The notes: a model not told the origin generated them from the letters alone. 62,793 bases of DNA, filler included, from Atractiella rhizophila (GCA_021432655.1; 3 parts of 3 records of this genome joined end to end with filler, not necessarily neighbours in it); one strand, 5' to 3'; positions 1 to 49,889 are shown, counted from the first letter of the whole stretch. Numbers and translations are program-made.

Positions 1-39
1 CTAAGTTTTGGAAACAGTTCTAATCATGTTTTGTGACAG

Positions 40-3000: not shown

Positions 3001-3170
3001 AAAACGCATTCCAAGCAAAGATGTTGAAACCATGGGAACCACTTTCTCCTCAGCTCCAGACATGGTTCGATCTTGTCAAGCAGTCCGTTGTTGGGGAGTT
3101 GGAGGGAACGAAGGAAGAGGATCAGGCGCAAACGAAAGTCACAGTTTCGCTCGCCAAACAATCTTTCTGA
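40..3170 (+). CDS. DEAH-box RNA helicase, DHX29/DHX57-like (multi-exon, 5' end outside window)
   Basis: Exons carry SGKSTQVP (motif I), CTEPRRISA (Ia), IIIDEV|HERS (II, split by intron), LMSAT (III), STNIAETGITIPD (V), QRRGRAGRV (VI), then HA2-like PEMMRLSL...ITPLGR...LPLDVHLAK and OB-like VQIHPSSVN; stop at 3168-3170. Confidence 0.92.
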
Positions 3171-19813: not shown

Positions 19814-21250
19814 CTATAAACCTTCCTCCTTCCCCGTCCTCGTCTTCGACAGGTCATTCAAATTCTTCTCCACCGCCGCCCTCAACCTCCCCTCCAAGCC
19901 TGCCCTGACGAGTTCTCCCGCCTTGAACGAGCTCCTGACGAGCGGTCCGGAGGCGACGTAGAGGAATCCCATCTCCCTCGCCTTCTCCGCATACTTCTCA
20001 AACACCTCCGGGGCGACGTAGGAATCGACCTTCATGTGTCGCTTTGTCGGTCGCATGTATTGGCCTAAAGTCACTACGTCTACGCCTACGCTTCGAAGGT
20101 CTGAGAAAGCCGAGGGTTAGAGTTAGCCTTGAAAGGTTACGCGAAAGAGAGACGGGGACGGACCACGAAGGGTTTGTATGACCTCTTCTTCCTCCTCTCC
20201 AAGACCAAGCATGATCGAGCTCTTCGTAAGCACTCTTCCTCCCGTAGTCTCCTTCGCCAACTCCAGCGTCCTCAACGACTGTCTATACCCCGCCCTCCGG
20301 TCTCTAACATCCGGAGTAAGTCTCTCCACCGTCTCAACATTATGTGCAAAAACCGATAAACCCGCATTCGCTACCAAACTGACCAGTTCCCTGTTCGCGA
20401 GGAAATCCGGTGTGAGCGCTTCGAGGAGGATGTGTGGAGCGCGAGTCTTCGTCTCCCGAATCGTGCTCGCAAAGTGGGCGGCGCCATAGTCCGGAAGGTC
20501 GTCCCGGTCGACGGAGGTCATTACGATGTACCCCACCCCCCAACGCGAGATGGCAGTCGCGACGTTTGATGGTTCGTTTGGATCGAGCGGTGCTGGTGTA
20601 CGTGAGGTGGAGACGGAACAGAAGCGGCAGGCGCGGGTGCATTCTGAGCCCATGAGCTGGTGGAGTTATTGATTGGTACATCAGAGACGAATGTAAGGGA
20701 GAAGGAGGAGAGAGAAAGACAAACCATGATGGTGGCGGTTGCCTCTCCTTTACTCCCACTCCAACACTGTCCGATGTTGGGACACCGCGCCTCCTCACAC
20801 ACCGTATTTAGACCCAATCCTCTGAGGTCTCGTTTGATGGAATTGTACGACTCCGACACTGGGATTTTCGTCCGCAAGTAATCAGGCAGCCTCATGCTAT
20901 TCCCACACACACCAACGCATTCAGAGTTTTCTTCTTCCCAATCAAAAGCCATAAAGCTATAAAAATGCCACAACGAAGGCAAGACCCAGGAAAAGGTACA
21001 AGTAAAGAAGTAAAGAGACGCACGCAGTGACGTTCCCCATCCGCACCCTCCCACTGACAAACTCATCAAACCCCGGTCCCTGGTCCAAGCGTTCCTTGAA
21101 GGAAGACATCCTACTTGAAGAGTTGGTGTTGGATGGTGCATCTGGTGGAAGGGGAGTGGAGGAGGAAGCGATGGAGGCGGAAGAGGTGGCAACTCCTCGT
21201 GCGAGGTTGAGCAGAGGCAGGGTGCGCTTGGCAGTCGTCGAGAGGGACAT
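19814..21250 (-). CDS. LIP5: Lipoyl synthase, mitochondrial (radical SAM)
   Basis: [17 protein letters not shown] (auxiliary cluster), [10 protein letters not shown] (CxxxCxxC), [39 protein letters not shown]; mitochondrial presequence from ATG 21250. Confidence 0.97.
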
Positions 21251-29998: not shown

Positions 29999-32900
29999 CT
30001 ATATTTGCACCACGTGTGGGACAGTACCTACCAATGGGACAAAGTCGAAAACTGAAGATAACTCGTCTGGCAGCAGCGTGATCCCTTTCCAATTGTATAT
30101 ACATAATTTTAAGACATCGACAATGTATATTCTTAAGAAAAAGAAGGGAAATGGACTTTGAAAACTGAGATATTAGCAAAAGATCATTCAACATCCCACT
30201 TTTTCATAGTGTATTCAGCTCATACTGGTCAAATATACTTCGAATTTTGTATACAAACACTTTGAGCATCTGTTCATCTGTTGCCCTTGGTCCGACGCCT
30301 TTCTGACTGGTAGTGATTGAGATCCTGCAATTTCTTGGAAGACCAATTTCCTGATCACGTGTTAGTGCGCAATTCCGCAGTTGTTATCTTTGACGCGTCG
30401 TGCTTCTTTCCATTTGGACACCTTTAACACACATCATGCCTGTCAGAAAGACCCAAAAAAAAGGTGTCAGTGACCAGGAGGTTGAAACCAACATGGCTCA
30501 GGCTATTAAGCTTCGCTTGCAGAACCTACAAGAGGTCCAGCAAAATAAACTGTTAAAGCCATTGTCACTGAGACAGATTGCTGATCAGTTTCCTGGTGTG
30601 TCTAAAAGTGCATTAGACAGGAGGTTAAAGGAGGGGAATTCCAGGAGAGAGAGCCAGGTCATGCTCCGACTTCTGCCACCTGAAAAGGAATTAGTCTTGG
30701 TGGAATGGGCAGAATTCTGGTCATCTCAGGGTCACCCTCTCTCCTTAAGCGGACTTCGTGCAGCAGCTCAAGCAATTGGGCAACTCAAGAAGAGACCGGG
30801 AAAAAAATGGACCAGGCTTTTTATAACGAGACATCCAGAACAACTCAGATTTGGCAAACCAGCTCCACTCGATCCACAGCGTGCTCAGAGTTTCAACAAA
30901 CCAACAGTAATGAAGTATTTTGATTTGTTCATGAAAGTGTGCAGTGAAAATGGGATACTGCTGAAAAATTGTTGGAATATGGATGAAAAAGGTGTGCAGC
31001 TTGGAGGTGGTCGAAAACAAGGCAATCGAAAGGTTGTCGTTTCTGTAAAATCGAAAAACTCATATCGTGCCAAATCGGATGCTCTAGAACTTATTACGGT
31101 CATTGAAGGCGTCTCTGCTGAGGGAGAGTGTCTCAAACCAACCTTTATCTACCCTGGCAAGCAACATAATGCTATTTGGACATCTGAAGTCTTAGAAGAG
31201 GACGGGGGCACATTTGAGTAAGTCAGGCTCGCCTTCTGATACTTCCAGTTCTACTTCTAACATCCTGTACTAGGACCACATACTCAGATAAAGGATGGAC
31301 AGATGATGACGTTGGATTTGAATGGTTCAAGGATGTATTGGTGGAGCATCTTTTAGAAAGTGGAGGCTTAGGGAAAGGAGAGCCATGCCTCTTGATCCTT
31401 GACGGGCATGGCTCCCACACCACCGAACGAATTGCAAGCTATGCATTCGATAATTTCCCTCGACTCCTCCACATTATTGTCCTTCCTGCTCATTGCACAC
31501 ACAAACTCCAGCCTCTCGATGTCGGGATCTTCGGCCCTCTTAACAATGCCTTTCGCAAGATCACTGACAAGCTCATTGACCAAGGAACTGAAGTCACAAA
31601 GAGGAATTTGATTCCACGCTACCTCATCGCCAAAAAGAATGGCATTACAAAAGAAGGCATTCGAAAGTCATTCAACAAATGTGGTATCATGGCAGGTGCA
31701 GATGGCACCAGTGCAATCATCAACAAAAATGTCTTTTCGGACACTGACTACACACCTTCACAACGAACTTCCATCAAATCCGTCTTCCCTCCTTCCCTTA
31801 CCAACATGCTCACTAGGACCTCTCAACAAGACGAGAATGAAGTTGCAATCTCCTTGGAAACTGCAGATACAATTCAGGACCAACTCTCAGACACCAGAGG
31901 GGAAAGTGGCATACCTTGGAGGCGGCTAGGGGTTGTTGTCGAAGGTAGTTCAAGTGAAGATGAGGAAGAGAGTGATGAGGATGATGGTGAAGAGCTGGAT
32001 GGAGTTGGCGAACAACTTGGAGGAGAAGACGTGACAGTGCTTCCAAGGCAGCTTCCATGTGGAAGTCCGACAAGCTTGAGGGACAGGGACAGGGATCAGG
32101 GTCCCGTATCCACAATTCAACAGGACCTTGAAACCCCTCCACACGCTTCTGTTCATCGCTTGCGTCATCCATACTCTGCTGCCAGCCTCTTGACCCCCAT
32201 ATCTCCAGATCAGTTTTACCACCTGCCACCATCCGCCATCAATCGTTTCCGCAACCATGAAGGAACACCTATACCCCTCAACACCGAAACTAATCAGAGG
32301 ACGTTATTTGGAGCATTAGCTGCCTTAGACCGTCAATTGACAGAGGTGGAGCGGGATAACGACTGTCATAATGCTCATATCCGAGTGTTAGTATTGGAGA
32401 ATGAGCGGCAAAAACAGGAACTGGAATCCGTTAAAAAGAGGGGTCGGAAGAGTAAAGACCGGCTATTCACCAGTCAGGCTAGGATCCTCAACAGTATTGA
32501 GGTGATGGATGCACTCAAGGTAGCTCGAGAGGAGAAAACAAGGAAGGAGGAGGAGAAAGCAAACCGAAAGAAAGAACGAGATAGAAAAAGAGCAGAAAAA
32601 GAGGCAGACCCTGAAGGTTATGAGAAACGTCAAAGGGAGGAAAGGAATGCAAAATCCCGACTTAACCGGGCCAAGAAAAAGGAAGAGGAGAGAAAGCGAA
32701 AGGAAGAAGAGGAAAGGGTGGGAAAAGTGCATGAATGTGCGCTGCTTACAACTGATTACTGGCATATCTGATTTGCTTTTTGCAGGGTCTCTTCCTGCTC
32801 CAACACTTCAGTTTGACACCCCTTGGTATCCTGCACACCATTCTAATCAACCTCACACAACTCTACTGTCTCAGAAGAGGACAGAACCCGACTCTGGATT

Positions 32901-34317: not shown

Positions 34318-34481
34318 TGTTGGATTAGGTGTTATATTTCATTGTGTTGTCTTTGTGTGTTCAGCCACCTTTGCTATGTTTACTCACTTTGTAGTTTTTC
34401 TTCCTCAGGGGCAGTCTTGGTGGTCATCATCTTTGAGCAACAACTGCTGTCCCCTAGCTTCATCAACCTCCATTTCTCTCA
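34318..34481 (+). repeat. copia LTR family A, copy A1 (short 164-bp form), followed by a degenerate PBS and leader to 34584
   Basis: TGTTGGATTAGG...TTCTCTCA then TCGTAGCAAGAG (compare TGGTAGCGAGAG); only one copy of the internal repeat. Confidence 0.85.
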
Positions 34482-34584
34482 TCGTAGCAAGAGCAGTGGC
34501 TAGGGATTGACAGATCAGTTGGAATTGCAATTTTTTAATTCGCTACTAACTTGGTTGAAAATTTTGACCACTCAGCCATCTGTT

Positions 34585-35000
34585 TGTTAGTTGTAGTGTG
34601 TTGTGTTGGTCATCTGCCCCTTATGACTCATATGAGTCATCACTATGTAGTTTAGTTTTGCCTAGGAGTGTTGGTGCTCATTATTGACCACCAACTACTC
34701 CTAGGTATGACTCTCTATAATTCATCAATGTCTCAATTATTGACCACCAACTACTCCTTGTTGGATTAAATGCTAAATTTCATGGTGTTGTCTTTGTGTG
34801 TTCAGCCACCTTTGCTGTGTTTACTCACTTCGTAGTTTTTCTCCCTAGGGGGCAGTATTGGTGGTCATCATCTTTGACCACCAACTCCTGTCCCCTAGGT
34901 ATGTGTTTCCTCATCAATCCTATCATCTTTGACCACCAACTGCTATCCCCTAGCTCCATCCAGCATCTATTCCTCTCACTCCTAGCCTCAGATCCTTTCA
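34585..35000 (+). repeat. copia LTR family B, copy B1, interrupted by solo LTR A2
   Basis: TGTTAGTTGTAG...GATCCTTTCA; homologous to 37276-37469, 46955-47145 and 48205-48395. Confidence 0.88.
34759..34978 (+). repeat. Solo LTR family A, copy A2 (220 bp) with 5-bp TSD CTCCT
   Basis: TG...CA termini; CTCCT at 34754-34758 and 34979-34983. Confidence 0.92.
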
Positions 35001-37275
35001 TCCAGAACCATCCAACAACACCAGATCAACCTCCTCCAGCAGCTTCAACGCCTCCCCCTGTCACCAGGCCTTCAAGAATTTATTCTACGAGTAGAGGACG
35101 ACCTGTTGACAGATTTAGGACCCCAGAAGCGCCTGACAACAACGACGAAGGGTCAACAGACGAGCTTGGGATGTTGGTAAAGGAATGTGACATCCTCACT
35201 GATCCAGAGGCGATGGAATATGGCTATATGCTTGTCACAGAGCATGCCATGAGTGCAGCAACAGGAACAAGGTCCCTCAGTCATATTCAAGAGCGATGGC
35301 AAGCCCTAATGCGAAGGAATGGCACGAAGCAACAGTGAAGGAGATTCAATCTCACTTGGACAACAAGAGTTGGATTCTGGTCAAACCACCTAAAGGAGCA
35401 AAAATCGTTGGTTCTCGATGGGTGTTTGCAGTTAAGAAGAAGTCAGATGGTTCTATCGAGCGCTTCAAGGCCAGATTCGTCATCAAGGGGTTCTCTCAAC
35501 GCCCTGGATTCGACTACTTTGATACTTTCGCATTGACGGTCAAATGGGCGACACTTAGGACGATTCTTTCCCTCGCTTGTGTCTTGGACATGCAGTTGGA
35601 GTCAGTGGACATCTCTACGGCATTCCTTAACAGCGATATGGATGCAGAAGTCTATGCACAACAACCAGAAGGACATCCACAGGGTCCTCCAGAGTACATT
35701 CTCAAGCTAATCAAGGCCATCTATGGCACAAGGCAAGGAGGACATCAATGGCAGAAGAAACTCAATAAGGAACTCGTCGATATGGGATTTAAGAAGATCA
35801 AGAGCGACTCTAGTCTGTGGATTTACTCGAAGGGGGACATCAAAGTACTTGTCCCGGTCTTTGTGGATGATATTACGATTGCTAGCACATCCAAGGGTGC
35901 TGTGGAGAACTTCAAGAGGGAGCTAGGGAAGCGATTCAAGCTCAGAGATCTTGGACCAACGGAATTCCTACTTGGGGTTCGTATTAGGAGGGATAGGAAG
36001 TGAAGAATGATGTGGTTGGATCAAGAACAGTATGTTAAGGAGCTCCTAGAACGCCAACAGATGGACGACTGCAACCATGTCCTCACTCCTCTCAATGTTG
36101 GACATGGTCTCAGCAAGTAGGACTACCCTCAGACAAAGGAAGAACAAGAAGAAATGCGCACAATCCCTTACAGCAACGTTGTTGGCTCCATGATGTACTT
36201 GGCCATATCCATTCGTCCAGATATCGCTCATGCAGTCTCTGTCCTCGGAAAATACCTCTCTAATCCTGGAAAGAAGCACTGGGAAGCGGCCAAGCATCTT
36301 CTACGGTACCTCAAAGGCACTCAGAACTTAGGAATTGAGTATTCTGCAACTGGTTTTGACCTCAAGCAACCTTTTCACGCTTTCTGCGATGCAGATTTTG
36401 CTGGGTGCAAGGATACTGGACGTTCTACGGGAGGCTATCTCCTCAAGATAGGCAACGGAGCAGTCAGTTGGAGCAGCAAACTACAATCCCTCGTTGCTCT
36501 TTCTACTACCGAAGCAGAATATGTCTCAGGAGTCTCAGCAGGTCAAGAAGTTGTCTGGCTAAGGAATCTTCTAGAAGAGATTGGCTTCACTCCTCAAGGT
36601 CCTACACCCCTCTTCACAGACAGCAGCAGCGCTCTCCAGGTATCCAAGAACCCTGAGCACCATGGTCGAATGAAACACCTGGACCTTCGCTTTTATTGGC
36701 TCAGAACAATCCCTCGTTGCTCTTTCTACTACCGAAGCAGAATATGTCTCAGGAGTCTCAGCAGGTCAAGAAGTTGTCTGGCTAAGGAATCTTCTAGAAG
36801 AGATTGGCTTCGCTCCTCAAGGTCCTACAGCTCTCTTCACAGACAGCAGCAGCGCTCTCCAGGTATCCAAGAACCCTGAGCACCATGGTCGAATGAAACA
36901 CCTGGACCTTCGCTTTTATTGGCTCAGAGATGTTGTTGAGATGGGCAAGATCAGTCCAGTCTTCTGTCCGGGTGTCGATATGCCAGCAGACCTCCTCACC
37001 AAGGCACTTCCAGTAGCTAGCATGGATAAGTTTCGACTTATGATGGGTCTGCGCCCCTATCCAAGTGTATGATGCAGTTATGGGGCGCAATAAAAATCCT
37101 TTCCTCCTCTGTGGGGTTATAAGACGCCGCTTTAAGCGGTACAAGGACTTTTCCCCTTCTTTTCATTGCAAAACTAATATGCTTTTTGCATTATGTTGGG
37201 TATACATTGTACTAATTTGGTGGGAGATTCTCTGGATGCGGTGGGAGCGTCAAGAGACAGCTGCCCAGGTGGGAG
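35001..37275 (+). pseudogene. copia (family B) RT-RNase H segment plus 3' UTR/PPT, inactivated
   Basis: KARFVIKGFSQRPG, VDISTAFL, VFVDD, CDADFAGC, ALSTTEAEY, KHLDLRF; frameshift ~35270, stops at 36001 and 36118, internal 223-bp duplication; terminal stop 37070-37072; CAGGTGGGAG abuts LTR B2. Confidence 0.92.
36483..36928 (+). repeat. 223-bp tandem duplication inside RNase H
   Basis: acaatccctcgttgctc...ttttattggctcaga at 36483-36705 and 36706-36928, near-identical. Confidence 0.93.
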
Positions 37276-37469
37276 TGTTAGTTGTAGTGTGTTGTTTTGG
37301 TCATCTGCCTCTTATAACTCATATGAGTCATCACTATGTAGTTTAGTTCTGCCTAGGAGTGTTGGTGCTCATTATTGACCACCAACTAGTCCTAGGTATG
37401 TCTCTCTATACTTCTCTAATGTGCTCATTATTGACCACCACCAACTACTCCTAGCCTTAGATCCTTACA
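37276..37469 (+). repeat. copia LTR family B, copy B2 (3' LTR)
   Basis: Preceded by the PPT; TG...TTACA; right flank CTTCT. Confidence 0.92.
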
Positions 37470-39112
37470 CTTCTGAGTCCAGAATCATTCCCTTCACAAG
37501 TCCTCTCTTCAGCATTCGCTTTATATCTTCAAGATTCAAGTGGGCAAGTCTTCTATGCCACAGGGAAGCGTTCAGGGGGGTGGTGGAGACATATGCAACG
37601 AATTCTGAGGTAATGAGTGTTCTTCCATCAATGATGGCACTCATGCTTCCTCTCCTGTGATCAACTGTCGCTGTAAAACAGAGATTTCCGTCCTTGAGGA
37701 AGCGTACTTTGTTCCCAGTGATGGTAACAGTCATGTTCTTGAATATAGTGAGCTTGAAAACGGATAGGAGATTGCTGCAGAGCTTGGGGACATGAAGGAC
37801 ATTGTGAATGGTGACCTGCTTCGACTTTTTACCCTCCAATTTCGCTTCAATCACCACATCTCCAATCCTAGCGGACCAGACCACCTCTCCATTCGCAACT
37901 CTGATGGCGTGTTTTCGATAGGATTTGAAGAAGTGGGGGTGTGGAGTCATCGATGAAGTTGCTCCTGTATCGATTAGCCAGTCAGTCCCAGCTCTCTGGC
38001 GACTAATGGCATCGTCTACCGTTGCATAGCTGGTCTCCCCAGCAAATTCTCCCCTTCTCCTTCGATTCTGGCTTCCCTAACATCTTCCAACTTCCCAAAC
38101 TTCGCTTTATAACGTTCCAACTCGCTTTTGAAGCCTTCTGAAGATGTTCCAGGGCAGTTGGAAGCGATATGAACCTTCTTGTGGCAGTTGAAGCACTCCA
38201 CAGGTGACCAATCCCTTCTCCCAGATCCCCCACCATTCCTTACACCTCTCCCACGTCCTACAGGACGGCCCCTGTCGCTGCTGGACGCCTGATTCGCCAT
38301 TGTGTTTGAGATGGCTTCCTCTGAGTTCCTGGTGGCCTGGATCGAGAAGAAAGCTTGTTGAATCGATTTGAGATCAGTTGAGGTCATCAGGGTGATGTTT
38401 TGGACAAAACTGGCGTATTCTGGGCCCAGAGAGCGAATGAGAGCGAAGGATTGAAGATCCTCCTTCAAATTATCGAGGGAATAGTCCTTGGACAGGGTAT
38501 TGGTGAAGTCCAGAAGGAGCTGGTCGCTTCTGGCACAGAGGGTGACCAGGGATTGATCCTCTTTCTTCTGGACAGCAAGCAGGGCGCTTAGGGACGAAAA
38601 ACGCGTGGAAGACCTCTTCTGCTGATGGATTTCTTGAAGGGTGGACCAGATCTTGACTGGATCTTGAATGACAGACACCACATGAGCCTTCTGGGTGGAT
38701 TCCAGGCTGAGGAACAGCATTCCTGCCGCTTTAGAGCGCTCCTTTCCCCATTGCTTTCCCTCCTTCAAATTAGCAGGCTTCTTCTCCTCTCCACACACGA
38801 TCTCCCATAGCCCCTTTCCCATTAATTCAGCTTGCATATCGATGCACCAGGTGCCATAGTTCTTCTCTCCAAGGGGGGTGATCAAAATTTTACTTTCTTC
38901 AGACATGGCGATAAAATTCGAGTTTGGATCGTCTGATCTTCGTCGAAATGGGGGGATAGGGCCTTAGGAGGGTCTCGATTATGATCCCAGAGTCTTGAAT
39001 CGATTGGACAAAGGATGGCTGAGTGGTCAAAATTTTCAACCAAGTGGGTGGCAAAATGGAAAATTGCAATTCCAACTGATCTGTCAATCCCTAGCCACTG
39101 CTCTCGCTACCA
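37470..39112 (-). pseudogene. copia family A 5' half (PBS, leader, gag, protease, GAG-pre-integrase), frameshifted and truncated by LTR B2
   Basis: PBS TGGTAGCGAGAG (39101-39112), ATG 38906, zinc knuckle CFNCHKKVHIASNC, WLIDTGATSSM, LWHRRLAH; frameshift ~38040. Confidence 0.92.
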
Positions 39113-39332
39113 TGAGAGAAATAGACGCTGGATGGAGCTAGGGGACAGGAGTTGGTGGTCAAAGATGATGGGATTGATGAGGAAACACATACCTAGGGGA
39201 CAGGAGTTGGTGGTCAAAGATGATGACCACCAATACTGCCCTCTAGGGAGAAAAACTACGAAGTGAGCAAACACAGCAAAGGTGGCTGACCACACAAAGA
39301 CAACACCATGAAATTTAACAGTTAATCCAACA
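39113..39332 (-). repeat. copia LTR family A, copy A3 (5' LTR, 220 bp)
   Basis: Reverse complement of A2-like sequence, adjacent to the PBS. Confidence 0.92.
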
Positions 39333-39971
39333 CAGAACAATCCTTTCACTCACCTGCGTCCTGGATATGGAGTTAGAGTCTGTGGACATCTCCACAGCGT
39401 TCCTAAATGGCGAAATGGATGCAGAAGTCTATGGCCAGCAGCCTGAAGGTCGTCCCCAAGGTCCCCCAGAATATGCTCTCAAACTCCTCAAAGCAATCTA
39501 CGGCACCAGGCAAGGAGGACGTCAGTGGCAGAAGAAATTTGACAAGGAAATCACGTCCTTGGACTTTATCAAGATCAAGAGTGATTCCAGTGTTTTTGGA
39601 TTTATTCAAATAGAGTGGTAAAGGTGATTGTCCCTGTCTGGGTGGATGATATAACGATTGCCAGCACGTCCAAAAGCGCTATCCAAGAGTTCAAGACGGA
39701 GCTGTTGAAGAGATTCAAGCTTAGAGACTTGGGACCAACGGAGTTCCAGCTAGGAGTTCGTATTAGGCGTGATAGGGAGAAGAGGAAGATGTGGTTGGAC
39801 CAAGAACAATACGTTAAGGACCTTCTCTCTCGACAGAAGATGGATAACTGCAAGCCTGTGCTCACCCCCCTCAGTGTAGGCCACAGTTTATCGAAGCAGG
39901 ACTGCCCACAGACCAAGGAAGACGCAGAAGAGATGCGCTCCATCCCTTACAGTCATGTTGTCGGCTCTCTC
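39333..39971 (+). pseudogene. copia RT fragment between two LTRs
   Basis: RTILSL..VLDMELESVDISTAFLNG, VWVDD, ...PYSHVVGSL; frameshift ~39600. Confidence 0.9.
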
Positions 39972-40192
39972 TGAGAGAATCTGATGCTGGATGGAGCTAG
40001 GGGACAGAGATTGGTGGTCAAAGATGATGACATTGATAGGGAGACACATACCTAGGCGACAGAGATTGGTGGTCAAAGATGATGACCGCCTAAACTGCCC
40101 CCTAGGGAGCTAAAACTCCGAAATGAAGCAAACACAACAAAGGTGGCTGACCACACAACACAAGACCACAAAATATAACACCTAATCCAACA
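39972..40192 (-). repeat. copia LTR family A, copy A4 (3' LTR)
   Basis: Followed on the + strand by CTCCCACCTG (PPT reverse complement). Confidence 0.92.
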
Positions 40193-41060
40193 CTCCCACC
40201 TGGACAGCCACCTCTTGAAGCTCCCACCAAATCCAAGAACCATCCAAGATAGCCACCGAACAAAGCTCCCACCGAATAAAGACAGCATGAAATAGCATGG
40301 CAAAAGGAAACATATTAGTTGACTGTCTAAAACCAGTAGAGAGATCCTCGTACCGCTTAAAGCGGCGTCTTATAATCCCCAGAAGGAGGACAGAGTTTTA
40401 TTGCGCCCCATAACTGCCTCATACACTTGGGTAGGGGCGCAGACCCATCATTTCTCGAAATTTTGCAACTCCAGCAACCGGTAAGGCCTTGGTGAGGAGG
40501 TCTGCAGGCATAGACTCGCCAGGGCAGAACACTGGGGTGATGAGTCCAGATTCTACTGTGTCCCTGAGCCAGTAGAAGCGAAGATCCAAGTGCTTCATGC
40601 GTCCATGGTGCTCAGGATTCTTGCTGACTTGCAAAGCGCTGTTGCTGTCCGTGAAAAGTGTTGTCGAACCTTTTGGAGCAAAGCCAATCTCTTGCAGAAG
40701 ACTTCTGAGCCAAACCACCTCTTGCCCTGCTGATACCCCTGAGATGTACTCCGCCTCCGTGGTTGAGAGTGCCACAAGAGACTGCAACTTGCTACTCCAA
40801 CTAACTGCTCCTCCTCCAACGGTTAAGAGGTATCCTCCAGTAGACCGGCCAGTATCCTTGCAACCCGCAAAGTCTGCATCACAATATGCCTTGAATGGTT
40901 GAGAGATATCGAAATCTGAGGCAGAGTACTCGATGCACATGTCCTGAGTGCCCTTGAGATAGCGCATGAGGTGTTTGGCAGCTTCCCAGTGCCTCTTGCC
41001 AGGATTGGACAGGAATTTTCCGAGGACAGAGACAGTGTGGGCAATGTCAGGGCGTGTGGC
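40193..41060 (-). pseudogene. copia family A RNase H and 3' UTR fragment
   Basis: ATRPDIAHTVSVLG...YCDADFAGC...ALSTTEAEY...ADLLTKAL...RPYPSV* (stop at 40419). Confidence 0.92.
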
Positions 41061-41225
41061 TGTTGGATTAGGTGTTATATTTCATGGTCTTGTGTTGTGT
41101 GGTCAGCCACCTTGGTTTGTTTGCTTCACTTCGGAGTTTTAGCCCCCTAGGGGGCAGTTTAGGCGGTCATCATCTTTGACCACCAATCCCTGTCCCCTAG
41201 CTCCATCCAGCATCAGATTCTCTCA
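41061..41225 (+). repeat. copia LTR family A, copy A5 (5' LTR, short 165-bp form)
   Basis: TGTTGGATTAGG...ATTCTCTCA then PBS TGGTAGCGAGAG (41226-41237); lacks the 55-nt GTATGT...AG segment. Confidence 0.93.
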
Positions 41226-41237
41226 TGGTAGCGAGAG
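41226..41237 (+). promoter_or_regulatory. Primer-binding site, probably initiator tRNA-Met
   Basis: TGGTAGCGAGAG, also at 39101-39112 and 47146-47157; TGGTAGCG matches the Ty1 tRNAi-Met PBS start. tRNA identity is inferred. Confidence 0.7.
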
Positions 41238-41412
41238 AGGTGACTAGGGATTGACAGATCAGTTTTGCCACCCACTTGGTTGAAAATTTTGATCACTCAG
41301 CCATCTGTTGTCCAATCGGTTTGAAACTTTGGGATCATAAACGAGACCCCCTTACGCCTATATCCACCCATTTCTACGAAGATCAGACGATCCAAACTCG
41401 AATTTTATCACC

Positions 41413-44400
41413 ATGGCTGAAGAAAGTAAAATTTTGATTACCCCCCTTGGAGAGAAGAACTATGGCATCTGGTGCATTGATATGCAGGCGGAATTGATGC
41501 GAAAGGGGTTATGGGAGATAGTCTCTGGAGTGGAGACAAAACCAGAAGATTTGAAGGAGCAAAAACAGTGGCAAAAGGACAGCTCCAAAGCGGCTGGCAT
41601 CCTGTTCCTTAGCCTAGAAGCGACCCAGAAAGCCCATGTGGTCTCTGTCCTTCAAGATCCAGTCAAGATCTGGTCTACCCTTCAAGAAATCCACCAACAG
41701 AAGCGCTCCTCAACTCGTTTCACTGCCCTCAACACCCTCCTTGCCCTCCAGAAGAAGGAAAGCGAATCTCTGATTACCCTGTGTGCCAGAAGCGACCAGC
41801 TGCTTCTAGACTTCACCAACACGCTCTCCAAGGACTATTCCCTCGATGATTTGAAGGAAGATCTCCAATCCTTCGCCCTCATTCGCTCCTTAGGCCCAGA
41901 ATACGCTAGTTTCGTCCAGAACTTAACCCTGATGACATCCACCGACCTCCAATCGATCAAACAAGCATTCTACTCGATCCAAGCCACCAAGAACTCGGAG
42001 GAAGCCATCTCCAACACTCAAATGGCAAATCAGGCATCCAGCAGCAACAAAGGACGAGGAGGATGGCGTCCCAGAGGTGGTAGGGGCGGAGGAAGAGGTG
42101 GAACTCGCATTTTTTCGCAACCTGAGTGCAACTACTGCCACAGGAAGGGCCACTACGTCTCCCATTGTCCAGAAACCCCCATTGGACGCAATAGGATCGA
42201 ACTAGACAAGTACAGGACGAAGTATGGGAAGCTGGAAGAGGCAAAGGAAGCCAAAGTCGAAGGGGGAAAGCCAGAATTCGCTGGAGAGACCAGTTATGCA
42301 GCGGTAGATGATACCATTAGTCGCCAGAAAGCTGGGACTGACTGGATTATCGATACAGGAGCAACTTCATCAATGACTCCACATTCCCACTTCTTCAAAT
42401 CCTATCAAAAACACGTTGTACCCATCAGAGTTGCGAATGGAGAAGTGATCTGGTCTACTGGGATAGGAGAAGTGGTGATTGAGGCGAAATTGGAGGATAA
42501 AAAGTCGAAGAAGGTCACCATTCAGAATGTCCTACACGTCCCCAAATTGTGCAGCAATCTCCTATCTGTTTTCAAGCTCACAATCTTCGAAGGTGTAACT
42601 GTGACCATCATTGGGAGCAGAGTACGCTTCCTCAAGGCTGGAAATCTCTGCTTCTTAGCGACCATTGACCACAGGAGAGGAAACATGAGTGCCATCATCG
42701 ATGGAAGAACACTCATGACCTCAGAATTCGTTGCACACGCCTCCACTACCCCTCTAAACGCTTCCCTGTGGCACAGGAGACTTGCCCACTTGAATCATGA
42801 AGACGTAAAGCGAATGCTGAAGAAAGGACTCGTGAAAGGAATGATTCTGGACTCAGAGGACGCTCCTGACCCCATCTGTGAGCCCTGCATCGCTGGGAAG
42901 CAGCATAGGATATACAACAAGGCTGCAGAGAATAGGGAGACGGAAATTTTAGGGAGGATCAGCTCAGATCTTCATGGACCGCTCCCAGTTGCTTCAAGAG
43001 AAGGATTTCGCTATTGGGTGACGTTTATAGACGAGGCAACAAGTCACTGGACGATTGCTTTTCTCAGGAAGAAGTCAGAAGCACCTCAACGCTTTAAGGA
43101 GTACAAAGCTATGATGGAGACGTTGACTGGAAGGAAAATCAAGAGATTCAGGGAAGACAAAGAAGGCACCTACTCCTCAACAGAATTCGATGAATATCTT
43201 CGAAATTGTGGCATCCAGCATGAGCAAACGATTAGGAACTCTCCTCATCAAAATGGGAGAGCAGAGAGAGCGAATAGGACGATTCAGGAGGGGATGGTGG
43301 TGATACTGGAGGAATCTGGTTTGCCACTATTCCTCTGGCCTCATCTTGCTTCGGCTGTGGTTCACATCAGGAACAGATCCCCCTCTTCCTCCATCAATCA
43401 CTCCATTCCCCACACGAAATTGACAGGGCAACTGGTCGATATTTCCGGTTTCAGAGTCCTAGGCTCTACTGCCTATGTCCAAGTTCAGAAGGACGAAAGA
43501 AGGCACAATCTGGCATCCCATACACCCAGATGTGCCTTTATAGGTTACTCTACCAGCGCTAAAGGCTGGGATTTCTGGGATCCAGTGTCTAAGAAGGTCT
43601 ACACTCGAGATATTGCGAAATTTGATGAGAGGGAGATGCTTTGCAAAGTCAGGAGGAAGGAGAACGCGTTGGAACCGCCTCAGGGACCACTGGATGAGTG
43701 GAAAGAACGTCAGGATCAGGTGGGAGAAGGAAAGAGACATGCTCCTGCCGTCCTTTTGGATTTTGGTGAAGATGAAGAGGAGGAGGATGCTTTGGAAGAT
43801 CAGGGAGAGCGGGAGAGACTCAGGGTGGAGTCCCCAAATCGTTTTGAAGGATTAAGGGACGAAGGAGAAAATCAGGAAGCGGAGCAAGAGAGGGAAGCAG
43901 CCCCAGAGCGGCCAGTAACACCCCCACTACGTCTTGTTCCTCAGAGAGACCCTTGGACTGGACTAATGATGGTGGGAAGACAGACAAAATCGCCTGATCC
44001 TCTCCAAATGACGCCTCCTCAAGCTATCCCTGCCTCTGCAGCTCCTCCACCAATCGAAAGACGCTATCCTGAACGGCAGAGGAGACCACCAGTCGAGTTC
44101 TGGAAGGCACCCAAGCTGCCCCAACCACAGGAGGAGAGCTCTGAAGAAGAGTTGGCAATGCTAGCTAAGGATTGTTGGATTATTACAGAGCCTGAAGCGT
44201 TGGAGTGTGGTTTTATGGAGGTTACTGAGCATGCCATGGCTGTAGGAACACAGGAACACGGCCCCAAGACATATGCAGAAGCCATGAAGACTCCAGAGGC
44301 GAAACACTGGCATGAGGCGACGGTGAAGGAGGTTCAAGCGCACTTGGACAACAAGAGTTGGGTGCTGGTAAAACCACCAAAGGGAGCAAAAGTCATTGGA

Positions 44401-44607
44401 TCCAGATGGGTGTTTGCTATCAAGAAGAAGTCTGATGGCTCAATTGAGCGTTATAAGGCTAGATTCGTCATCAAGGGCTTCTCCCAGCGTCCTGGATTCG
44501 ACTTCTTCGACACCTTTGCATCCACAGTCAAATGGGCCACTCTCAGAACCATTCTTTCGCTAGCCTGTGTCCTGGACATGGAACTGGAATCAGTTGAGAG
44601 AATCTGA
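41413..44607 (+). CDS. Ty1/copia gag-pol polyprotein, open through gag-PR-IN and truncated in RT by LTR A6
   Basis: 1064 aa: CNYCHRKGHYVSHC, WIIDTGATSSM, WHRRLAH/CEPC, integrase SDLHGP...REDKEG...QNGRAERANRT, RT KARFVIKGFSQ; copia domain order; element sequence stops at 44594. Confidence 0.96.
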   Translation: MAEESKILITPLGEKNYGIWCIDMQAELMRKGLWEIVSGVETKPEDLKEQKQWQKDSSKAAGILFLSLEATQKAHVVSVLQDPVKIWSTLQEIHQQKRSSTRFTALNTLLALQKKESESLITLCARSDQLLLDFTNTLSKDYSLDDLKEDLQSFALIRSLGPEYASFVQNLTLMTSTDLQSIKQAFYSIQATKNSEEAISNTQMANQASSSNKGRGGWRPRGGRGGGRGGTRIFSQPECNYCHRKGHYVSHCPETPIGRNRIELDKYRTKYGKLEEAKEAKVEGGKPEFAGETSYAAVDDTISRQKAGTDWIIDTGATSSMTPHSHFFKSYQKHVVPIRVANGEVIWSTGIGEVVIEAKLEDKKSKKVTIQNVLHVPKLCSNLLSVFKLTIFEGVTVTIIGSRVRFLKAGNLCFLATIDHRRGNMSAIIDGRTLMTSEFVAHASTTPLNASLWHRRLAHLNHEDVKRMLKKGLVKGMILDSEDAPDPICEPCIAGKQHRIYNKAAENRETEILGRISSDLHGPLPVASREGFRYWVTFIDEATSHWTIAFLRKKSEAPQRFKEYKAMMETLTGRKIKRFREDKEGTYSSTEFDEYLRNCGIQHEQTIRNSPHQNGRAERANRTIQEGMVVILEESGLPLFLWPHLASAVVHIRNRSPSSSINHSIPHTKLTGQLVDISGFRVLGSTAYVQVQKDERRHNLASHTPRCAFIGYSTSAKGWDFWDPVSKKVYTRDIAKFDEREMLCKVRRKENALEPPQGPLDEWKERQDQVGEGKRHAPAVLLDFGEDEEEEDALEDQGERERLRVESPNRFEGLRDEGENQEAEQEREAAPERPVTPPLRLVPQRDPWTGLMMVGRQTKSPDPLQMTPPQAIPASAAPPPIERRYPERQRRPPVEFWKAPKLPQPQEESSEEELAMLAKDCWIITEPEALECGFMEVTEHAMAVGTQEHGPKTYAEAMKTPEAKHWHEATVKEVQAHLDNKSWVLVKPPKGAKVIGSRWVFAIKKKSDGSIERYKARFVIKGFSQRPGFDFFDTFASTVKWATLRTILSLACVLDMELESVERI

Positions 44608-44806
44608 TGCTGGCTAGGGGACAGAGATTGGTGGTCAAAGATGATGACATTGATAGGAAACACATACCTAGGGGACAGAGATTGGTGGTCAAAGATGATG
44701 ACCGCCTAAACTGCCCCCTAGGGGGGCTAAAACTCCGAAGTGAAGCAAACAAAACAGAGGTGGCTGACCACACAAACATAACAGAAATATAACACCTAAT
44801 CCAACA
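44595..44806 (-). repeat. copia LTR family A, copy A6 (3' LTR)
   Basis: TGAGAGAATC...AATCCAACA followed by the PPT reverse complement. Confidence 0.92.
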
Positions 44807-46954
44807 CTCCCACCTGGGCAGCCGCCTCTTGAAGCTCCCACCAAATCCGAGAACCATCCAGAATAACCATCCAATGAAGCTCCCACCGAATGAAGGCATC
44901 ATGAAGTGACATCACACAAAGAAAACATATTAGTTAAATGTCTAAAACCAGTAGAGAGATCCTCGTACCGCTTAAAGCGGCGTCTTATAACCCCCAGAAG
45001 GAGGACAGAGTTTTATTGCGCCCCATAACTGCCTCATACACTTGGGTAGGGGCGCAGACCCATCATTTCTCGGAATTTTGTAACACCAGCAACCGGTAAG
45101 GCCTTGGTGAGGAGGTCTGCAGGCATAGACTCGCCAGGGCAGAAGGCTGGGGTGATGAGTCCAGATTCTACTGTGTCCCTGAGCCAGTAGAAGCGAAGAT
45201 CCAAGTGCTTCATGCGTCCATGGTGCTCAGGATTCTTGCTGACTTGCAAAGCGCTGTTGCTGTCCGTGAAAAGTGTTGTCGAACCTTTTGGAGCGAAGCC
45301 AATCTCTTGCAGAAGACTTCTGAGCCAAACCACCTCTTGCCCTGCTGATACCCCTGAGATGTACTCCGCCTCCGTGCCACCAGAGACTGCAACTTCCTCC
45401 GACAGTTAAGAGGTATCCTCCAGTGGACCGGCCAGTATCCTTGCAACCCGCAAAGTCTGCATCACAATATGCCTTGAATGGTTGAGAGATATCAAAATCT
45501 GAGGCAGAGTACTCGATGCACATGTCCTGAGTGCCCTTGAGATAGCGCATGAGGTGTTTGGCAGCTTCCCAGTGCCTCTTGCCAGGATTGGACAAGAATT
45601 TTCCGAGGACAGAGACAGTGTGGGCGATGTCAGGGCGTGTAGCAACTGCAAGGTACATGAGAGAGCCGACGACATGACTGTAGGGAATGGTTCGCATCTC
45701 TTCTTCATCTTCCTTGGTCTGAGGACAGTCTTGCTTCGATAAACTGTGGCCTACACTGAGAGGAGTGAGTACAGGCTTGCAGTTATCCATCTTGTGTCGA
45801 GAGAGAAGGTCCTTAACGTATTGCTCCTGATCCAACCACATCTTCTTCTGCTTCCTATCACGCCTAATCCTCACTCCAAGCAAAAATTCCGTGGCTCCAA
45901 GGTCCCTCAGCTTGAATCTCTTTCCTAACTCCTTCTTGAACTCGTCCACAGCGCTTCTGGACGTGCTAGCAATCGTTATATCGTCCACAAAGACAGGGAC
46001 GATCACCTTGACTTCACCATTCGAGTAGATCCAGAGACTGCTGTCACACTTGACCTTGGTGAAGCCCATGGACACGAGCTCCCTGTCCAGTTTCTTCCGC
46101 CATTGACGTCCTCCTTGCCTGGTGCCATAGATTGCTTTGAGGAGTTTGAGAGCGTATTCTGGAGGACCTTGAGGGTGACCTTCTGGCTGCTTGGCATAGA
46201 CTTCAGCGTCCATTTCTCCGTTCAAAAACGCAGTTGAGATGTCCACTGATTCCAGTTCCATGTCCAGGACACAGGCTAGCGAAAGAATGGTTCTGAGAGT
46301 GGCCCATTTGACTGTGGATGCAAAGGTGTCGAAGAAGTCGAATCCAGGACGCTGGGAGAAGCCCTTGATGACGAATCTAGCCTTATAACGCTCAATTGAG
46401 CCATCAGACTTCTTCTTGATAGCAAACACCCATCTGGATCCAATGACTTTTGCTCCCTTTGGTGGTTTTACCAGCACCCAACTCTTGTTGTCCAAGTGCG
46501 CTTGAACCTCCTTCACCGTCGCCTCATGCCAGTGTTTCGCCTCTGGAGTCTTCATGGCTTCTGCATATGTCTTGGGGCCGTGTTCCTGTGTTCCTACAGC
46601 CATGGCATGCTCAGTAACCTCCATAAAACCACACTCCAACGCTTCAGGCTCTGTAATAATCCAACAATCCTTAGCTAGCATTGCCAACTCTTCTTCAGAG
46701 CTCTCCTCCTGTGGTTGGGGCAGCTTGGGTGCCTTCCAGAACTCGACTGGTGGTCTCCTCTGCCGTTCAGGATAGCGTCTTTCGATTGGTGGAGGAGCTG
46801 CAGAGGCAGGGATAGCTTGAGGAGGCGTCATTTGGAGAGGATCAGGCGATTTTGTGTGTCTTCCCACCATCATTAGTCCAGTCCAAGGGTCTCTCTGAGG
46901 AACAAGAGGTAGCGGGGTTGTTACTGGCTGCTCTGGGGCTGCCTGTGGCCTGTC
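44807..46954 (-). pseudogene. copia family A RT-RNase H and 3' UTR, with two small deletions in RNase H
   Basis: 548-aa frame with a full RT (VFVDD); ~10- and ~22-bp deletions at ~45375-45395 relative to the 40760-40815 copy; stop at 45034. Confidence 0.93.
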
Positions 46955-47145
46955 TGTTAGTTGTAGTGTGTTGTTTTGGTCATCTGCCTCTTATGACTCA
47001 TAAGAGTCATCACTATGTAGTTTAGTTTTGCCTAGGAGTGTTGGTGCTCATTATTGACCACCAACTACTCCTAGGTATGTCTCTCTATACTTCGTCAATG
47101 TGATTATTATTGACCACCAACTACTCCTAGCCTTAGATCCTTACA
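46955..47145 (+). repeat. copia LTR family B, copy B3 (5' LTR) followed by PBS and leader to ~47335
   Basis: TGTTAGTTG...TTACA|TGGTAGCGAGAG. Confidence 0.93.
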
Positions 47146-47335
47146 TGGTAGCGAGAGCTGGTGGCTAGGATTACATTTGGTCACACCTATCACCTTCCCC
47201 CTCCTCCAGACCACAATTTTCACCCTCCCACACTCAAATTTTGCTCAATTTCGATGATCAGAACAGATTTGTGACCCTCAAACGTTCCTTTACCACCTTA
47301 GAAGGTTTCTGGAATCAAGAAATATCGAAATCTAC

Positions 47336-48204
47336 CACCTGATCCTGACGTTCTTTCCACTCATCCAGTGGTCCCTGAGGCGGTTCCAACACGTTTTCCT
47401 TCCTCCTGACTTTGCAGAGCATCTCCCTCTCATCAAATTTCGCAATATCTCGAGTGTAGACCTTCTTAGACACTGGATCCCAGAAATCCCAGCCTTTAGC
47501 GCTGGTAGAGTAACCTATAAAGGCACATCTGCGTGTATGGGGATGCCAGACTGTGCCTTCTTTCGTCCTTCTGAACTTGGACATAGGCAGTAGAGCCTAG
47601 GACTCTGAAACCCAAAATATCGACCAGTTGCCCTGTCAATTTCGTGTGGGGAATGGAGTGATTGATGGAGGAAGAGGGGGATCTGTTCCTGATGTGAACC
47701 ACAGCCGAAGCAAGATGAGGCCAGAGGAATAGTGGCAAACCAGATTCCTCCAGTATCACCACCATCCCCTCCTGAATCGTCCTATTCGCTCTCTCTGCTC
47801 TCCCATTTTGATGAGGAGAGTTCCTAATCGTTTGCTCATGCTGGATGCCACAATTTCGAAGATATTCATCGAATTCTGTTGAGGAGTAGGTGCCTTCTTT
47901 GTCTTCCCTGAATCTCTTGATTTTCCTTCCAGTCAACGTCTCCATCATAGCTTTGTACTCCTTAAAGCGTTGAGGTGCTTCTGACTTCTTCCTGAGAAAA
48001 GCAATCGTCCAGTGGTTTGTTGCCCCGTCTATAAACGTCACCCAATAGCGACATCCTTCTCTTGAAGCAACTGGGAGTGGTCCATGAAGATCTGAGCTGA
48101 TCCTTCGTAAAATTTCCGTCTCCCTATTCTCTGCAGCCTTGTTGTAGATCCTATGTTGCTTCCCAGCTATGCAGGGCTCACAAATAGGGTCAGGAGCGTC
48201 TTCT
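47336..48204 (-). pseudogene. copia family A integrase fragment
   Basis: Near-identical to ~42855-43722 in reverse orientation; frameshift ~47535. Confidence 0.92.
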
Positions 48205-48395
48205 TGTTAGTTGTAGTGTGTTGTTTTGGTCATTTGCCTCTTATGACTCATATGAGTCATCACTATGTAGTTTAGTTCTGCCCAGGAGTGTTTGGTGCTC
48301 ATTATTGACCACCAACTACTCCTAGGTATGTCTCTCTATACTTTTCTAATGTCTCATTATTGACCACTAACTACTCCTAGCCTTAGATCCTTACA
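48205..48395 (+). repeat. copia LTR family B, copy B4
   Basis: TG...TTACA; left flank CTTCT, right flank CAAAG (no matching TSD). Confidence 0.92.
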
Positions 48396-48949: not shown

Positions 48950-49889
48950 ATCCACCTTTCTCTGAATATGGCATCTTTTTTGTAAAGGTGGTGCGACTCG
49001 GGGTCAAGCTCAGGTACACAAAGCCCTTCTCTTACTACCATGTTGGATTAACCATTGACCTATAATGACTAGTCGTTTAGCTCAATGGTTAATAACAACT
49101 ACAACCCTCTACGGACTTCTTGGAATTCAAGCAGCTCCATCAACACCATCCTCAAACCGATGGTCAAACTGAGCAAGTCAGTCATGGGATTAAGACCTAC
49201 CTTCAGATTTTATCAACTATTGACAGGATGCCTCTGTAGAATGGTCCCCTATTGCAGAGATCTGCCACAACAATTGAGTTTACTCCTCCACTAGTCAGAC
49301 TCCCTTCAGACTTAACACTGATCAGCACCTTCAAATAGGACTTGAAGATTCACCTCCAATACTCAGGGAGTTACCCGATCAATTTTTTTCACTTATAAAG
49401 AAGTCAAATGAAGAAGCACAAGCTGCTTTAGAGAAGGCTGTTCAAGATATGACAAAATACTATGATCAAAACAGGGAACCAGGTCCTACATACAAGGTTA
49501 GAGACCTAGTCTGTCTGGATGCCAGGAACCTTAACTTGCTTTGCCCTGTCAACAAGCTTGATGACAAATGGCTTGGTCCTTTCCCTATTGCCAAGATTGT
49601 CTCTCCTGTTAACGTTTGTCTTACCCTCCCAGCTAGCATGTCTATCCATCTGGTACTTCATGTCTCTCTCATTCAAAAGGCTCCTCCACATATCCATCTT
49701 ACTGATTGACTAGACCCTGACATTATCACTGATAGAGAAGACCCTGAATACAAAGTGGGGAAAATACTTGAATCACAAAAATAATATAATGTTATTTGGG
49801 TCAGAACAATGAAGAAATGGGATGATCTGGAGAATGCTCAGGATGCTATCACACAGTTCTGTGTGAAGAATCCACAAGCACCCAGGTGA
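48950..49889 (+). mobile_element. Degenerate Ty3/gypsy chromovirus integrase-chromodomain relic
   Basis: HPQTDGQTEQV, KLDDKWLGPFPIAKIVS...IHLVLHVSLI (GPF module), chromodomain-like EYKVGKILES...WDDLENAQDAITQF..NPQAPR*. Confidence 0.85.

Follow-up and report, generated by a model that had tools for sequence, protein, structure and literature searches.

Background

Retroviral leader RNAs are known for their stem-loops in the R (repeated) region, such as TAR and the poly(A) hairpin, and for stems that enclose the primer-binding site (PBS), and human T-cell leukemia virus type 1 (HTLV-1) has a splice donor in R. Introns are expected to be lost from elements that replicate through RNA, and they promote expression in some basidiomycetes. 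To our knowledge, little has been established about the leader RNA structure of fungal copia elements. In this study, we analyzed a group of Ty1/copia elements in a stretch of 62,793 nt of DNA from the fungus Atractiella rhizophila (GCA_021432655.1; three parts of the genome joined end to end with filler, called the window below), in whose long terminal repeats (LTRs) a first-pass annotation had noticed a segment of about 55 nt that resembles an intron and whose 3' end duplicates the end of the upstream exon. The annotation regarded it as a candidate intron that is regenerated in every replication cycle. Our leading reading, which is tentative and close to an even call, is that the segment belongs to a leader which is highly structured and conserved within one copia lineage, and which would extend from R through the unique 5' region (U5) to the PBS.

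Introns are reportedly gained when an exon piece containing AG|GT is duplicated in tandem, a model proposed by Rogers and said to have been shown experimentally later. Several reports, of which excerpts were available to us, describe systems that come close to this locus. In retroviral leaders, interconverting folds expose or hide the PBS (PMC3362945), and reverse transcriptase (RT) deletes direct repeats precisely and often, while direct repeats in LTRs vary in copy number (PMC3187697). Splicing is described in plant Ty1/copia elements (PMC5580714), and a 2026 preprint on maize describes introns inside LTRs, with a mean of 1303 bp and in LTR-contained non-coding RNAs, which it terms the first such evidence (10.64898/2026.05.08.723830). 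Besides, introner-type transposons, copia elements and solo LTRs among them, can serve as introns in the genes of their hosts (PMC12130899).

The intron-like segment and its direct repeats

The elements form a scrambled nest at 34.3-48.4 kb of the window, in which blastn and MAFFT resolved ten LTRs of two families, and one LTR on a metagenome contig (L001) brings the whole sample to 11. Family A consists of two subfamilies, A1-A3 (A-i) and A4-A6 (A-ii), with one short LTR in each, while family B includes B1-B4 and the LTR of L001, which was found in an LTR DNA pattern scan and is a further B copy in the long form with identical repeats.

The seven segments quoted in the first-pass annotation turned out to be exact. 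Each runs from GTATGT to TAG over 54-59 nt, and the 25-35 nt preceding each segment (repeat 1) recur at its 3' end (repeat 2). In family A they are located at 34899..34953 in A2 (plus strand; 55 nt, made up of a 23-nt spacer and a 32-nt repeat 2), 39138..39192 in A3 (minus strand; 55 nt, repeats identical at 32/32 positions), 39997..40051 in A4 (minus strand; 55 nt) and 44614..44667 in A6 (minus strand; 54 nt, repeats identical). Those of family B are at 37396..37454 in B2 (plus strand; 59 nt, with a 3-nt insertion in repeat 2), 47075..47130 in B3 (plus strand; 56 nt, a 31-nt spacer and a 25-nt repeat 2) and 48326..48380 in B4 (plus strand; 55 nt, repeats differing once). An eighth segment in B1 (34705-34758, plus strand) has the donor GTATGA and is cut by the solo LTR A2, and the ninth copy is that of L001. 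The donor of the long copies is GTATGT in 8 of 9 and GTATGA in the remaining one (B1).

The core 13-mer, TTGACCACCAACT, occurs 11 times with at most one mismatch compared with 0.16 expected, and none of 100 shuffles reaches 11. The repeat is 32-35 nt long in A and 25-31 nt in B, and the copies are separated by a unique spacer of 20-31 nt. The length of the segment is 54-56 nt in 8 of 9 copies, although the B repeat is 7 nt shorter and the B spacer 8 nt longer than those of A. Repeat 1 is followed by GTATGT, and repeat 2 by CTCCAT (A) or CCTTAG (B). We also considered the spacer as a duplicate of the LTR tail that follows repeat 2, and rejected this, for by eye there is only weak similarity in A and none in B. 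Between A and B, the repeat is the best conserved part of the LTR (72% compared with 44-65% elsewhere). As had been claimed, the two short LTRs lack exactly the segment: A1 and A5 measure 164 and 165 bp, compared with 220-221 bp for A2-A4.

The description of the two families as otherwise dissimilar did not survive. It turned out that their LTRs are 70-71% identical over 126-128 nt (blastn), that they have the same PBS 12-mer and the same 8-mer of the polypurine tract (PPT), and that their internal regions are about 75% identical. By this similarity, A and B are diverged sister families. Because they are homologous, the segment common to both has a single origin and was inherited rather than acquired convergently, and its presence in both is no independent evidence for the interpretation given in the first-pass annotation.

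Predicted hairpin and PBS-enclosing stem

Repeat 1 is the 3' arm of a long predicted hairpin, the 5' arm of which lies directly upstream. The duplicated repeat noticed earlier is not free-standing, being one arm of a conserved hairpin. This hairpin is predicted in all 11 LTRs, both short ones included, with 17-22 bp and -19.9 to -39.7 kcal/mol (z -2.5 to -9.1; single-sequence folds); larger windows around it give z of -3.4 to -5.1 against dinucleotide shuffles, and the complementary DNA strand also folds (z -3.2 to -10.4). For instance, the hairpin of A3 (39190..39252, minus strand), which consists of the 5' arm, a 7-nt loop and repeat 1 with 3-nt flanks, has 21 bp and -32.8 kcal/mol, and that of B3 (47027..47077, plus strand), with a 4-nt loop between the 5' arm and repeat 1 and with flanks, has 19-21 bp and -29.0 kcal/mol. 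Relative to A, family B is without 4 nt on both arms of the hairpin, a paired and compensating change which shows that the stem was kept between A and B. The MAFFT alignment shifts the inner stem of B by three columns, and the hairpin pairs were therefore taken from the single-sequence folds. The end of the repeat coincides exactly with the base of the hairpin, and the first 1-3 bases of the donor, the first three in B, lie within the stem.

In the A-ii hairpins (40049-40111, 41141-41203 and 44665-44727), one C·A mismatch in the RNA sense corresponds to a G·T pair on the opposite DNA strand, and the cDNA stem is thus at least as good as that of the RNA. A comparison with Rfam gave only three sub-threshold matches to mir-4766, all in hairpins of family B (E 0.28-0.41; 25 bits, the gathering score being 72), which we read as mere hairpin likeness.

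The repeat copy that adjoins the tail (repeat 2 in the long LTRs, the single repeat in the short ones) shows complementarity to the 45 nt that follow the PBS. The predicted duplex has -17.1 to -29.6 kcal/mol with z of -2.4 to -6.5 in 5 of 5 copies; of 500 shuffles, none was as good for A1, A3, B3 and L001, and 10 were as good for A5. The leader arm of A3 (39072..39096, minus strand) is predicted to pair with repeat 2 and thereby to enclose the tail and the PBS, that of A5 lies at 41242-41264 (plus strand), and that of B3 (47163..47183, plus strand) would pair with repeat 2 and also with the first part of the tail. When the whole leaders of the long A3 and B3 were folded, both stems coexist in the minimum free energy structure (z -4.7 and -5.2), the PBS is bracketed in silico, and the spacer is a single-stranded link between the hairpin and the PBS stem. 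The single repeat of the short A5 is used for the hairpin only.

Concerted evolution of the repeats and the short LTRs

Of the 9 long copies, 5 (A3, A6, B1, B3 and L001) have two identical repeats; the remaining four are older, and their repeats are 1-2 changes apart. Between lineages the repeat differs by a 3-nt indel, a 4-nt indel and several substitutions, and within each lineage both repeats have the same state. For example, at one site A3 has C, A4 and A6 have T, and the five B copies have A; the two repeats of a copy match each other there in 8 of 9 cases. Some of these lineage changes lie in an internal loop of the hairpin, so that selection for pairing alone is an insufficient explanation. 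Judged from this pattern, the repeats are kept alike by some copying process.

Of the short LTRs, A1 shares 90% identity with A2, and A5 shares 94% with A4. Long forms are present in B and in both A subfamilies, so the history is most economically explained by two independent losses. Template switching of RT between the direct repeats would account for the homogenisation as well as for the two precise short LTRs, with no splicing involved. The single repeat of A1 has a G in common with repeat 2 of A2, which was considered as a sign of slippage over splicing; this site takes all four bases across lineages, and no inference was drawn from it.

A structured leader as the leading reading

On the reading that we favour, the LTR hairpin would be composed of the 5' arm, the loop and repeat 1, and repeat 2 would be a second copy of the 3' arm, 20-31 nt downstream, which pairs with the complementary leader arm just past the PBS. 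In the RNA or cDNA of a long LTR, the hairpin and the PBS-enclosing stem would form together, joined by a single-stranded spacer starting with GTATGT. RT would switch template between the two repeat copies and thus keep them identical, and an occasional collapse of the repeats would produce the precise 165-bp short LTRs; copy-choice by RT is accordingly our candidate for the homogenising process. The likeness to an intron would be incidental or secondary: splicing would give the same short product, but it is not needed for the anatomy. With such a leader, the base of the hairpin accounts for the repeat ending at TAG, and the two stems provide a plausible function for repeat 2 as well as a reason for the long form persisting despite irreversible collapse.

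Several points weigh against it. All of the structures are predictions, and we infer their location in R and U5. Taken by themselves, small leader windows did not outperform shuffles in folding (z -0.35 to -1.9), so the case for the PBS stem is made by the duplex test and the recurrence in both families; the pairing register of the leader arm differs between A and B, and the pairing is weak in A5 (z -2.4). Copy-choice needs intermediates with three repeats, and no such form was found among the 11 LTRs, which is a small sample. Besides, a structured leader explains neither the host-consensus donor GTATGT at the start of the spacer nor the near-constant segment length of 54-56 nt in 8 of 9 copies. 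We still rank it first, and it does not exclude a true intron, for the two readings are not mutually exclusive.

Splice signals compared with host introns

To characterize the introns of the host, two host proteins, the best matches of which are Atractiella rhizophila proteins (99% and 98% identity), were mapped back onto the window, and 15 introns were resolved; one junction of P0121 (a 90-nt gap) and a 1-codon indel in P0001 were left out of the set. The host introns are 44-68 nt long with a median of 49 nt (n = 15). Their donors follow GTNNGT, with G at +5 in 15 of 15 and T at +6 in 12 of 15, and their acceptors are CAG (6), TAG (6) and AAG (3). Against this set, the segments do have a host-like length, 54-59 nt falling in the range of 44-68 nt, and the donor called canonical in the first-pass annotation and the TAG acceptor are host-like as well, for GTATGT fits GTNNGT and TAG makes up 6 of the 15 host acceptors. 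The motif TTGAC is located 17-21 nt upstream of AG in the segments, and the host introns mostly have CTGAC, CTAAC or CTGAT (by eye, n = 15).

These signals have to be seen against their background. A loose host-like pattern (GTNNGT, a branch-like pentamer and YAG) has 0.98 starts per kb per strand in the window, and roughly 0.2 are expected per LTR strand. Because the pattern is so common, a single occurrence in an LTR of 200 nt is unremarkable, and only conservation carries weight. All six donor positions are invariant across A-i, A-ii and B, compared with 11-13 of 17 other aligned spacer positions (about 65-76%); by our own arithmetic this corresponds to p of about 0.1, which is not significant relative to the neighbouring spacer. 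The acceptor is inseparable in such a test because it belongs to the repeat. A second intron further upstream, from a conserved GTAGTT to the TAG of repeat 1, was considered and rejected: its donor is without the G at +5 that all 15 host introns have, and in A-ii the donor sequence is GGAGTT.

The main alternative is that the segment is a genuine mini-intron, removed by the spliceosome from the 5' leader that the LTR provides, so that spliced mRNA would serve for expression and unspliced RNA as the replication template. The short LTRs would be retrotransposed spliced RNAs, and the duplicated hairpin arm would have supplied the branch site and the acceptor. We consider this unlikely, but it is the strongest contender. 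The length of 54-59 nt, the GTATGT donor and the TAG acceptor are host-like, a branch-like TTGAC stands 17-21 nt before TAG, the donor hexamer is invariant across three lineages, and the short LTR equals the predicted spliced product exactly; a mini-intron would account for the consensus donor and the near-constant segment length. Persistence of the long form in three lineages, when there is no way back from the short one, speaks for a use of the segment, and the maize preprint reports introns that lie within LTRs (10.64898/2026.05.08.723830). However, intron-like patterns are frequent at 0.98 per kb per strand, and the invariance of the donor is not significant when about 65-76% of the spacer is conserved. 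The first 1-3 donor bases sit in the predicted hairpin stem, while the PBS stem, as predicted, would hide the branch-like motif and the acceptor, and a mini-intron alone gives no reason for the identity of the repeats. That some splicing of the segment would appear in RNA data is quite possible, if still somewhat short of probable.

Other explanations

The regeneration cycle proposed in the first-pass annotation goes one step further. The 5' copy would be spliced, while the 3' copy would be retained as polyadenylation precedes the acceptor; cDNA of the spliced leader would then make an early jump, leaving repeat 1 for the repeat 2 at the 3' end, by which the intron would be rebuilt, and late jumps would lead to short LTRs. 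No description of an LTR intron rebuilt by strand transfer was found in literature searches. Such a cycle predicts that repeat 2 is overwritten by repeat 1 in every round, and concerted evolution is seen; it also predicts a 3' boundary of the repeat that is sharp at the splice sites and a fuzzier 5' one (the repeat is 25-31 nt in B and 32-35 nt in A), and short LTRs are expected as by-products. Against it, four conditions have to hold simultaneously (transcription starts upstream, splicing takes place, polyadenylation occurs within the segment, and the early jump is preferred), and full-length strong-stop cDNA from a spliced leader would give short LTRs only. All observations which it covers are also covered by duplication of a hairpin arm and ordinary RT copy-choice, and the homology of A and B leaves one origin instead of two. 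We regard the cycle as improbable. The same slim chance is given to a combination, in which the LTR would hold a real mini-intron with a 3' half copying the exon end, and cDNA of the spliced leader would re-register on the unspliced 3' copy and restore the intron, with the hairpin as the pause site that favours the early jump.

Slimmer still is the chance that the segment is a neutral relic of one old RT slippage, with splice-like signals due to chance and short forms due to later slippage. Chance intron-like patterns are indeed common, and direct repeats in LTRs are unstable. But a neutral duplicate would diverge, whereas changes specific to a lineage occur in both repeats. Three lineages that differ by about 30% have all retained the long form, although deletion works in one direction only, and no other part of the LTR is as well conserved between A and B as the repeat (72% against 44-65%).

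Least probable of all is a module for 3'-end formation, in which the hairpin would bring upstream signals near a cleavage site in the UAUGU-containing spacer and repeat 2 would be U5, in analogy with retroviral poly(A) hairpins. Its position fits, directly behind a stable stem and at 15-25 nt from the end of the LTR, with a conserved block just upstream of the 5' arm, but the short LTRs are without the spacer and A5 nevertheless heads the most intact element.

The copia nest and its surroundings

All complete LTRs start with TGTT and end with CA, that is, they have the TG...CA ends. The PPT GGTGGGAG directly adjoins three 3' LTRs (B2, A4 and A6), and the PBS-like 12-mer TGGTAGCGAGAG stands directly after three 5' LTRs, with a decayed copy after A1. 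The sole tRNA in the window is a tRNA-Arg.

From the left, the nest begins with A1 (34318..34481, plus strand), a short, A-i-like LTR of 164 bp, followed by its decayed PBS (34482-34493) and leader arm (34498-34520). The long LTR B1 (34585..34758 with the last 17 nt at 34984-35000, plus strand) is interrupted in repeat 2 by A2 (34759..34978, plus strand), a long solo LTR of 220 bp with a 5-bp target duplication, CTCCT (34754-34758 and 34979-34983). B2 (37276..37469, plus strand) is a long 3' LTR preceded by its PPT at 37268-37275. A3 (39113..39332, minus strand; long, 220 bp) is the 5' LTR of a minus-strand element, with the PBS-like 12-mer at 39101..39112 (minus strand) directly after it and a gag reading frame at 38016..38963 (minus strand; Retrotran_gag_2 and DUF4219). 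The long 3' LTR A4 (39972..40192, minus strand; 221 bp) is preceded by its PPT at 40193-40200. A5 (41061..41225, plus strand), the short A-ii LTR of 165 bp, is the 5' LTR of the most intact element, with its PBS at 41226-41237 (plus strand). A6 (44595..44806, minus strand) is a long 3' LTR of 212 bp with a 6-nt deletion after repeat 2 and a PPT at 44807-44814. B3 (46955..47145, plus strand; long, 191 bp) is a 5' LTR directly followed by the 12-mer at 47146..47157 (plus strand), and B4 (48205..48395, plus strand; long, 191 bp) has rearranged flanks; a target duplication was looked for at B4 and none was found.

The element headed by A5 has an open frame of 1088 codons (41341..44607, plus strand) that includes gag, a protease-like barrel, the integrase and the start of RT. 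The Pfam domains in 41341-44607 are arranged as Retrotran_gag_2, Pol_BBD, gag_pre-integrs, rve, SH3_retrovirus and RVT_2, which is the order of Ty1/copia, and the element is truncated at about 44594/44595 by A6. A full RVT_2 domain (Pfam) is present in 45227-46990 on the minus strand. The regions 42855-44597 and 48204-46242 are inverted copies of one A-type internal region, 97.5-99.1% identical and broken up by B-type LTR fragments; this identity suggests recent activity and rearrangement in the nest. A tandem duplication of 223 bp (36483-36928, 98.7% identical) lies in the RNase H-coding part of a B-type element.

In family B, the unique 3' region (U3) contains an 18-nt palindrome with two inverted TGACTCA motifs (34623-34640, 46993-47010 and 48243-48260; about 330-360 in L001), which resembles AP-1/Gcn4 sites, and L001 has one additional copy of the motif. 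In positions 1-1129 of L001, the order is pol 3' end, PPT, a single LTR, PBS and leader. Such an order would be expected from tandem elements with an LTR in common, from a one-LTR circle, or from an assembly in which the two LTRs were merged into one. The LTR DNA pattern scan gave L001 as the only match among the metagenome contigs and none among the viral contigs. The gag-pol protein scan gave 78 pattern matches in the metagenome contigs and 6 in the viral contigs, none of which is a relative.

Other remains of mobile elements are found beside the nest, namely a DDE_1 transposase frame and a Tf2-type integrase SH3 fragment (30394-32771; 49278-49706), and 5121-7265 holds a 1.07-kb unit in two head-to-tail copies, 92% identical. 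The host genes at 19817-20952 and 26-3167 are 97-99%, and not fully, identical to Atractiella rhizophila proteins, and the window may come from another strain or haplotype. The other genes of the window are typically fungal and include Chs7 and a HapX-type bZIP.

Significance and comparison with known systems

Within about 200 bp, these LTRs offer a compact test case, in which a duplicated stem arm, homogenised copies and an intervening stretch with candidate host splice signals of every kind occur together. If splicing occurs, they would show how a retroelement reconciles intron-dependent expression with replication, and if it does not, they would be a clear natural example of RT copy-choice shaping and maintaining the structure of an LTR. 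If the regeneration cycle were true, the element could be expressed from spliced mRNA and yet pass its intron on to its progeny.

Like the introns gained by tandem duplication, the segment repeats the upstream exon end at its 3' end, and splicing would restore the unduplicated sequence. That model fails here because the copies are not contiguous, with 20-31 nt of unique spacer between them, and because repeat 2 is followed by C and not by GT. Introner-type transposons link LTR sequence with splice signals as well; there the whole element or solo LTR is the intron of a host gene, whereas here the candidate lies inside the LTR (PMC12130899). As in the introns known from LTR retroelements, the donor would be near the 5' end of an LTR-driven transcript, and in maize, too, both splice sites are described inside the LTR. 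Unlike the maize introns, as far as these are described in the excerpts of the preprint, the candidate is 55 nt, of fungal size, less than 80 nt from the LTR end and flanked by a repeat of the exon end (10.64898/2026.05.08.723830).

With the direct-repeat deletions by RT in retroviral LTRs and vectors, the locus has in common the precise loss of a repeat together with the intervening sequence, the presence of one-copy and two-copy LTRs in one family, and, on our reading, homology-driven switching (PMC3187697). It differs from the cases presented there in that the repeats are 25-35 nt with a unique spacer and are located beside U5 and the PBS, not in an enhancer, and in that the two-copy form appears to be maintained over long divergence.

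In conclusion, the likeness is greatest to the retroviral leaders, in the predicted stable hairpin near R/U5, in the PBS predicted to lie in a long-range stem between U5 and the leader, and in the alternative pairings predicted for the short form. Unlike in those leaders, one arm of 25-35 nt is present twice as a direct repeat and would serve both stems, and the element is a fungal Ty1/copia element, the structures of which are known from prediction.

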